Positions 170-1,548 of a stretch of DNA of 64,000 nucleotides are shown here, piece by piece. Both the position numbers and the translations under genes were made by a program. Every line of letters begins with the position of its first letter. The first letter of the stretch is position 1. The DNA comes from a virus. The stretch spans positions 1 through 64,000 of IMG/VR virus record IMGVR_UViG_3300020472_001862; one strand, written 5' to 3'. Below the pieces are notes generated by a model. That model searched no databases. It was not told the origin of the DNA and was given only the letters and a program-made list of their open reading frames with translations.

Positions 170-178
170 TGTTATAAT
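170..178 (+). promoter_or_regulatory. extended -10 promoter TGnTATAAT
   Basis: TGTTATAAT upstream of the AGGAG SD and the ATG at 202. Confidence 0.55.
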
Positions 179-201
179 ATACACATTAAATAGGAGAATA
201 T

Positions 202-579
202 ATGTTAGTTAATAAATGTGAAGGTAGAGGTGGAGTTAAACAAATAGAGATGACAACAGGAGAAGTGTTGCAGGAAATGATAGACAATTGGTGGCACGAC
301 GAGGACACATTAACAGGTGGTGTTGAAATGTTAGACGAAACTGTATGTGGAATAAACATACACGAACAATTACAATATGAGTTTAACATAGCAGATATAC
401 AGGGTAAGTACTTTATAGGACATGTTGATGATTGTTTTGCACAAACTACAAAAGAAGAATGGCATGAGGAACTTAAACAAAGAGACTATGACACATGTTG
501 GGAGATAACAGACGAAGGTATTATGAGATACATGTACGCAGACGGGTATATACTAATTTTTGTATATAACAAAAAGTAA
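202..579 (+). CDS. hypothetical acidic early protein
   Basis: 125-aa ORF with AGGAG SD; no Pro or Ser. Confidence 0.75.
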   Translation: MLVNKCEGRGGVKQIEMTTGEVLQEMIDNWWHDEDTLTGGVEMLDETVCGINIHEQLQYEFNIADIQGKYFIGHVDDCFAQTTKEEWHEELKQRDYDTCWEITDEGIMRYMYADGYILIFVYNKK

Positions 580-613
580 TAACAGGCATGGCGACTATAT
601 AACAAATGATTAT

Positions 614-642
614 TTTACATTTAGTTATGTATTTAGTATAAT
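614..642 (+). promoter_or_regulatory. sigma70-type early promoter TTTACA-17-TATAAT
   Basis: correct spacing, followed by a GTGTATATTAATTAAATAAAAAAGGA leader resembling those after 25983 and 63757. Confidence 0.7.
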
Positions 643-675
643 GTGTATATTAATTAAATAAAAAAGGAAACAAAT

Positions 676-870
676 ATGTTAAATGAAATTGTAATTTACA
701 TGAAAGATGAACAAATTGAGATTAACGATACAAACTACAGATTGGAATTGTTAAACTTTATAGCAGAACATACACTTAACGACTTAGACAATACAAAGTA
801 TATTGACGAGGCAGTTAATATATTAAGATACGATACACATAGTGGTTTATATAATAGTGAGGAAGTGTAA
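676..870 (+). CDS. hypothetical early protein
   Basis: 64-aa ORF with AAGGA SD downstream of the promoter. Confidence 0.7.
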   Translation: MLNEIVIYMKDEQIEINDTNYRLELLNFIAEHTLNDLDNTKYIDEAVNILRYDTHSGLYNSEEV

Positions 871-1046
871 TGAAAATAGTAAGTGGTGGCGAAAGTATTA
901 ACGAGAATAACGAAAAGGTGGCGAGAGTTACTTTAGAGAACGGAAGTGTATATACATTAACTGAATATATGTATGTAGACTGGGATGAGTTTACACACAC
1001 AACACACGAAGAACTAATAGAGTGTGGGTGGGAAAAAGAATTATAA
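870..1046 (+). CDS. hypothetical early protein (58 aa, MKIVSGGESINENNEKVARVTLENG...CGWEKEL); not in the ORF track
   Basis: TAATG stop/start overlap with the previous gene, GAGG SD, open to TAA at 1046. Confidence 0.7.
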   Translation: MKIVSGGESINENNEKVARVTLENGSVYTLTEYMYVDWDEFTHTTHEELIECGWEKEL

Positions 1047-1084
1047 CTTGTTGATTACTAAAGGAATTTAGTTAGTAAAAAAGG

Positions 1085-1113
1085 TTGCATTTTGGTTTAG
1101 TGTATAGTAATAT
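1085..1113 (+). promoter_or_regulatory. probable early promoter TTGCAT-17-TAATAT
   Basis: AAAAAAGG-TTGCAT-TTTGGTTT resembles the AAAAAGG-TTGACA-AATGGTYC element. Confidence 0.5.
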
Positions 1114-1147
1114 ACACAGTAACAGTAAACAAAAAGGGTTATACAAT

Positions 1148-1504
1148 ATGTTAAATTTACAAACTTTACAAAACAAACTAGCAGACGGATTTGAAACAAT
1201 GTATGTTTACATTGAGGAAAGCACGGATTTTGATACTATTACAGTTAACATACAAAAAATGTTACACATAGCAGAAGAAGAAGGAAAAGAGTATGAGGTA
1301 ATGGATTATTGTTTAAGTTTTGACGGCACACATTTTACACACGGTAGCACAGATAATATAGTATTTGGCGACGAAGAAGAGTGTATTAAGTTTTGCACAA
1401 ACTATTTGTGGGAGTTAAGAGATGAAGAAGACGAAACAATTAGTTTAAGTGAAGCACGAAAAGAAGTAGTTAATAGTAGCAATGGCAGTTTTAAATATAG
1501 TTAA
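1148..1504 (+). CDS. hypothetical acidic early protein (start revised to ATG 1148)
   Basis: AAGGG SD before ATG 1148; the upstream TTG start in the track lies inside the promoter. Confidence 0.7.
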   Translation: MLNLQTLQNKLADGFETMYVYIEESTDFDTITVNIQKMLHIAEEEGKEYEVMDYCLSFDGTHFTHGSTDNIVFGDEEECIKFCTNYLWELRDEEDETISLSEARKEVVNSSNGSFKYS

Positions 1505-1534
1505 CTAAAAACACAAAAAGGGGTTGACATTTAG

Positions 1535-1548
1535 TTAGCCCCTGTGCG
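1535..1548 (+). repeat. right copy of direct repeat TTAGCCCCTG(A/T)GCG, flanked by hairpins (1520-1542 and 1558-1578)
   Basis: 13/14 identity with 135-148; stems GGGGTTGAC/GTTAGCCCC and AGGCTAGC/GCTGGCCT. Confidence 0.75.

Follow-up and report, generated by a model that had tools for sequence, protein, structure and literature searches.

From position 170 to 1538 of the window, the window being the first 64 kb (64,000 nt) of a 170,236-nt T4-like virus contig with relatives found in marine metagenomes, selection keeps the dinucleotides GA and GG, and largely the trinucleotide AGC, off the template strand of a short series of transcription units; in the promoters of these units it also excludes GA from the non-template strand of the cores. 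Judging from sequence comparison, we consider it somewhat better than an even bet (a probability of roughly 0.55) that this island is a modification-free immediate-early cassette and that the phage's own modified guanine directly obstructs host RNA polymerase.

The YC-free tract (YC being TC or CC on the plus strand, that is, GA or GG on the template) is confirmed as real by a recount of its dinucleotides. The first-pass annotation had reported roughly 150 C by eye, no TC or CC, and plentiful GA and GG; the recount gives 137 C, TC and CC both at zero and, at normal levels, 113 GA and 60 GG. YC steps at 168–169 and 1539–1540 bound the tract. The next longest YC-free runs in the whole 170,236-nt genome measure 187 and 181 nt, while GR-free (GA- and GG-free) runs reach 148 nt at most; nothing of comparable length occurs elsewhere in the genome. 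The 181-nt run is in fact the same locus, repeated at the contig end, because the last 32 nt of the contig equal window 202–233. Chance as the origin of the tract is ruled out by shuffling and by orthologue conservation: 2000 shuffles of the tract contain a mean of 51 and a minimum of 32 YC, local shuffling of the genome in 1.4-kb blocks gives longest YC-free runs of 143–182 nt, and 2000 simulated recodings of the ORFs, which preserve the proteins and follow the codon usage of the genome, give 30 expected YC with a minimum of 16. An assembly artefact confined to this genome, as the annotation had also allowed for, is likewise ruled out, the tract being recovered in independent NCBI, ENA, Logan and JGI assemblies. 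GCT on the plus strand of the tract is depleted about 8-fold and AGC is therefore disfavored on the template strand, where GA and GG are banned and GT is free. At codon junctions across the whole genome the signal is weak (0.90 for TC, 0.98 for CC).

The island begins at P1, a hairpin (z = −4.3) conserved in relatives. Past the palindrome of P1 it takes in the extended −10 box and then four small acidic ORFs with two sigma70-type promoters among them, and it stops in the 3′ arm of a second, terminator-like hairpin (Table 1). Around P2, positions 609–666 lack GA, GG, TC and CC altogether. The four ORFs encode, as the annotation had claimed, no proline, and serine by AGY only (14 of 14); among the 194 ORFs of at least 80 aa, ORF1 and ORF4 are the only ones free of proline. 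Fold, Atlas, Pfam and PHROG searches with these two proteins gave no usable match, which is not proof of a new fold, and IMG/VR scans with single island proteins as query gave no match; the predicted model of ORF4 is confident (pLDDT 92) and matches no known fold. At the closing hairpin a canonical T tract is present in relative L116, and this genome has no U tract there (window 1520–1550); we speculate that the GGGG on the template at this place, if modified, might supply a pause. The divergent promoter and the genome's other promoters found lead into downstream DNA with normal YC. A gene for a very acidic 891-aa protein, which has Cys-spaced repeats and whose N-terminus is hydrophobic (window 5222–7897, minus strand), is kept beside the island in relatives.

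Table 1. Features of the island and of PA5oct (window positions, except for PA5oct).
Feature	Coordinates	Strand	Remarks
YC-free (template GA/GG-free) island	170..1538	+	dinucleotide recount
P1, GCGAC-N7-GTCGC palindrome followed by extended −10 (TG-t-TATAAT, 170–178)	146..178	+	from sequence; putative promoter
ORF1, 125 aa	202..579	+	acidic (26 D+E, 10 K+R); no Pro; no family or fold match
P2, sigma70-type promoter	614..642	+	GA-free −35 TTTACA
ORF2, 64 aa	676..870	+	acidic; no Pro; slot exchanged among relatives
ORF3, 58 aa	870..1046	+	acidic; no Pro; weak match to phrog_11558 (function not known for that phrog)
P3, standard promoter of the genome in rewritten form	1085..1113	+	−35 TTGCAT for TTGACA; spacer TGGTTT for TGGTCC
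ORF4, 118 aa	1148..1504	+	acidic (26 D+E, 8 K+R); no Pro
Terminator-like hairpin	1520..1543	+	3′ arm holds the first CC past the island
Divergent ordinary promoter, TTGACA ... CATAAT	98..126	−	not purged; outside the island
PA5oct elements free of GA, GG, TC and CC	267,341–267,557; 239,311–239,459; 277,085–277,227; 264,998–265,138	both	

The island is kept in relatives from several assembly sources while the genes within it get swapped. All homologues of ORF1 (24) and ORF4 (35) are proline-free across the homologous part, and 22 orthologous copies of ORF4, at 40–100% identity, contain 832 C without a single TC or CC. Inside the relatives' islands we found 13 distinct YC contexts, 12 of which lie either in the stretch separating a hairpin from the promoter that follows it or promoter-upstream, meaning upstream of an internal −10 box; the YC at L125:9198, at an Asp-Pro step, is the sole one inside any relative's island gene, and such rare leaks are viable. 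Relatives carry a longer allele, with one TC in a promoter palindrome, and the cassette is for this reason taken as about 1.5 kb. In L112 and L115 the longer allele has a 38-aa ORF and two palindromic promoters. Window 64–205 aligns to the contig end, and one divergent promoter region is present in two alleles, at these positions and at contig 169,870–170,236. Assemblies of the relatives run straight through the island locus. In G019, a near-complete dpdA2 phage, no island was found, but its contig ends fall on both sides of the syntenic locus.

The loss of YC is the result of purifying selection and not of C-to-T damage. The first-pass annotation had favored a persistently single-stranded strand driven to saturation by UV or a cytidine deaminase, both of which have established signatures resembling the YC context. 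When YC-to-YT saturation is simulated on the coding strands of the genome, the outcome is 33% T, 148 TT per kb and 40% of RC followed by T, whereas the tract has 27.6%, 91 per kb and 16%, none of which is raised. C-ending codons after purines are enriched; in orthologues GAC outnumbers GAT (94 vs 52), TTC, ATC, GTC, ACC and GCC are all at zero, and the ORFs remain intact over 40–100% identity. Some replacements are moreover other than C-to-T (the spacer TGGTCC has become TGGTAC, and the −35 G is replaced), and the deaminase that the annotation proposed to look for is not seen, with no match to PF00383 (dCMP/cytidine deaminase), the one family searched, in the genome. Mutational saturation therefore has next to no chance of being the cause. 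Avoidance of UV photoproducts is also ruled out, TT being kept and the template strand being rich in dipyrimidines. The alternative that the annotation had held in reserve, selection against YC/GR due to a phage modification or a host enzyme, is supported.

Loss of YC from the sense strand, taken alone, fits either modification of template G or a reader of the RNA, and it is the promoters that separate these. Ordinary promoters of the clade start with TTGAC, and their spacers often end in AGAGTG; the −35 boxes of island promoters read TTTACA, TTGCAT, TTGTGT, TTTACT, TTGTAA or TTGCGT, and the TGGTTT that the annotation had noted at 1085, against TGGTCC or TGGTTC elsewhere, is a genuine spacer variant. 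Over this genome and 41 related loci, TTGA starts 0 of 26 distinct island cores vs 28 of 36 ordinary ones, and GA accounts for 5 of 107 G in island cores vs 63 of 200 in ordinary ones, counts that are not independent and whose significance is overstated, the 26 island cores being mutually related with 8 distinct −35 hexamers. A smaller test on candidates picked by their −10 box gives TTGA in 0 of 10 island and 11 of 17 ordinary promoters. Exceptions are the island-start promoters of L258 and L267, which retain TTGAC at 19-nt spacing. Because TTGAC contains no sense-strand YC and island gene bodies are rich in GA (113 GA in 289 G), the loss of GA reflects a constraint on the DNA itself, at the site where sigma binds.

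This constraint on −35 boxes and spacers is not predicted by RNA-level models, according to which UC/CC-free mRNAs would evade Rho, or a pyrimidine-C RNase or toxin, until an island product neutralizes the reader. The ban does match the sense strand, starting at the −10 box and stopping in the hairpin stem; the primary site of Rho binds YC (PMC5314796), so that here as in Rho utilization sites YC on the transcript would be the recognized word, and no DpdA would be needed, consistent with the island-less cultured genomes described below. Rho utilization sites are, however, cooperative and without −35 box involvement, with loading requiring several spaced YC across 60–90 nt (PMC5314796), and 0 YC among 832 C is stricter than Rho needs. 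The depletion of GCT and the two-strand elements of PA5oct (see below) are not predicted either, and we hold escape at the RNA level to be unlikely.

A candidate source of modified guanine lies in one cluster (genome 94,427–100,955) of queE, folE, a dpdA2 homologue, a dpdL-like gene, a glycosyltransferase gene adjoining the insertion cluster, and queD. The 422-aa DpdA2-like protein matches dpdA2 of VH7D/KVP40 and ACP17 (E 2e-45 to the VH7D gene between folE and queF) as well as genes annotated as tRNA-ribosyltransferase-like, and has no Pfam TGT match and no PDB sequence match. The DpdL motif LxxxHRHxF is present in a cluster protein that matches phiST phages, and the only match for QueC is a partial one to PF06508, 55 kb from the cluster. 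Cytosine modification is ruled out as the cause for want of a gene, the genome giving no C5-methylase, thymidylate-synthase-family or TET match. The gene set is homologous to those of known DpdA-type systems (CAjan, iggy and PA5oct; DpdA2 of VH7D and nt-1; DpdL of phiST and ACP17), the target words of which match the words banned in the island: GA and GGC for CAjan DpdA (PMC7544227), GA for iggy DpdA (PMC10484667), and GA and/or GG for PA5oct, as deduced from restriction resistance (10.1101/2025.03.31.646159). The papers on those systems deal with protection against nucleases and do not mention a target-free gene cassette.

Between dpdA2 and dpdL lies a gene (98,539–99,096; L003:5040–5594) that weakly matches pyrimidine-dimer glycosylases (PF03013, E 0.003) and on this match could be a candidate remover of modified bases; it has a homologue in the terminal repeat of PA5oct, its linkage to the cluster is not constant, and the annotated glycosylase of Phosso has no detectable homology to it. 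Elsewhere, between DNA polymerase and uvsX, a nucleotide-sugar-dehydrogenase-like gene (127,837–128,598) and a gene that by eye is methyltransferase-like (126,855–127,433) possibly provide the sugar supply for DNA decoration. In Mendera a myo-inositol-1-phosphate synthase gene (L009:2502–3752) sits within the dpdA2 cluster, hinting at another guanine hypermodification.

On the reading as a modification-free cassette, DpdA2 would, after replication, swap G in GA and GG for a deazaguanine, which would then be decorated further, a sugar being the probable addition. When such a genome enters the cell, the sigma70 RNA polymerase of the host would be unable to use TTGAC −35 boxes and would be hindered by decorated template G, so that only the island cassette would fire at once. 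Its small acidic products might then lift the block on the remaining genome, whether by altering the polymerase, by stripping the decoration or by neutralizing a host factor. Decorated non-template G inside genes would be tolerated, and within the model this would account for the strand asymmetry and the plentiful Asp and Glu codons. Speaking for the model are the dpd gene content, the target-word match, the loss of GA from promoters, the location of the relatives' YC, the features of PA5oct and PBPA162 given below, and the finding that bacterial RNA polymerase is blocked by deazaguanine with a bulky 7-substituent (PMC4838386). Speaking against it are that this block acts mainly at initiation rather than elongation, with unsubstituted deazaguanine tolerated (PMC4838386), the promoters of L258 and L267, nine island-less cultured phages, and the measured insertion by DpdA2 at < 0.1% of G (10.1101/2023.04.13.536721), which is too sparse for the model unless the enzyme here differs or product was missed. 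GGATCC also counts against it, being absent genome-wide (0 vs 20 expected) though modification should protect that site. Palindrome avoidance as a whole is ambiguous for the model, ACGT and CGCG, which have no GR, being avoided but GGATCC, which has GR, being absent too. ACGT occurs 22 times genome-wide vs 274 expected (0.08) and CGCG has an O/E of 0.37; avoidance of ACGT, CGCG and GGATCC suggests host restriction specificities.

The same modified G might have a different reader, namely a host modification-dependent glycosylase or nuclease (Dag1/Dag2, GrwAB or END type) that damages decorated GA/GG, the cassette keeping its template intact long enough to make acidic DNA-mimic inhibitors. Such host enzymes are known and PA5oct encodes an END inhibitor; the proteins of the island are small and acidic and vary in mosaic fashion from relative to relative, and this reader would account for an absolute per-site ban and for phages of other hosts being without islands. 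It does not readily explain why −35 boxes lose GA while gene bodies keep it on the non-template strand, and fold searches, in which the best Z scores were 3.7 and 4.5, give no clear likeness of the acidic island proteins to known mimics of the Ocr, Ugi or Gam type, which leaves it improbable in our view. Slightly less probable again is a host or phage enzyme attacking unmodified YC:GR in transcribed DNA, for example on the displaced strand, independently of the dpd cluster: purifying selection, strand polarity and the island-less dpdA2 phages would all fit, but no candidate enzyme was found, promoter GA loss would need a second cause, and the match to the DpdA motif would be a coincidence.

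Cultured phages served as controls. PA5oct, which has adjacent homologues of dpdL (56%) and the glycosyltransferase (39%), contains six mostly intergenic stretches of 104–217 nt that are GA/GG-free on both strands, each with 14–30 G and C; the corresponding runs measure 62–94 nt in PA5oct shuffles, 72–87 nt with control word sets and at most 65 nt in 16 other genomes. The longest listed in Table 1 carries two TTGCAA promoters ahead of the tRNA cluster. In the iggy-like PBPA162, GA (0.65) and TC (0.67) are depleted, and GG (1.02) and CC (1.03) are not; a divergent non-coding region of this phage (42,700–43,700, L177), GA/TC-poor and GG/CC-rich, fits the GA-only motif of iggy. Nine cultured genomes that carry dpdA2 and/or dpdL (BUCT-ZZ01, ACP17, Mendera, X1, pf16, VH7D, Phosso, RHph_I1_18 and Bakedbeans, the last examined over 135 of 155 kb) have no island, their longest run being 137 nt, and these genes are thus not sufficient for one. 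Nor does an island of gene length occur in CAjan, 9g or PBPA162. GA/TC troughs in BUCT-ZZ01 and CAjan were ruled out as early islands, the former sitting in a tail fibre and the latter within a single coding gene.

The nearest concepts are Dpd modification and the avoidance of restriction sites in leading regions. The leading regions of T5 and T7 are known to avoid restriction sites. Motif avoidance in first-injected DNA has also been described for Murciavirus and Type I RM (PMC12455610). As there, the island is a short, variable early region cleared of a motif tolerated elsewhere; it differs in that a dinucleotide is avoided, on one strand only and at the expense of the protein sequence, and that the modification is probably the phage's own. 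The literature searches turned up no such cassette and no absolute dinucleotide recoding of an operon. Modification-dependent phage promoters are known from SPO1 (hydroxymethyluracil) and AR9 (uracil), in which base chemistry gates promoter firing as proposed here, but with opposite polarity, since the earliest promoters of the present phage would owe their activity to the absence of the modified base.

Early in infection host RNA polymerase has to transcribe heavily modified phage DNA, and how it does so is largely an open question. The island would offer an answer: a few genes and promoters kept target-free, even though this sacrifices all proline and the consensus −35 box. That hypermodification acts as a genome-wide transcriptional lock, with a target-free cassette as the key that lets host RNA polymerase read modified DNA, we rate at slightly less than an even chance. 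Were it true, the words missing from such islands would disclose, from sequence alone, the target motif of uncharacterized modification enzymes. The island predicts the motif of the DpdA2-DpdL-glycosyltransferase system, for which PA5oct is a cultured model, and its four proteins are candidates for reading through or removing modifications, or for inhibiting modification-dependent defences. Absolute dinucleotide recoding of an operon would be of note even if the reader were Rho or another enzyme.
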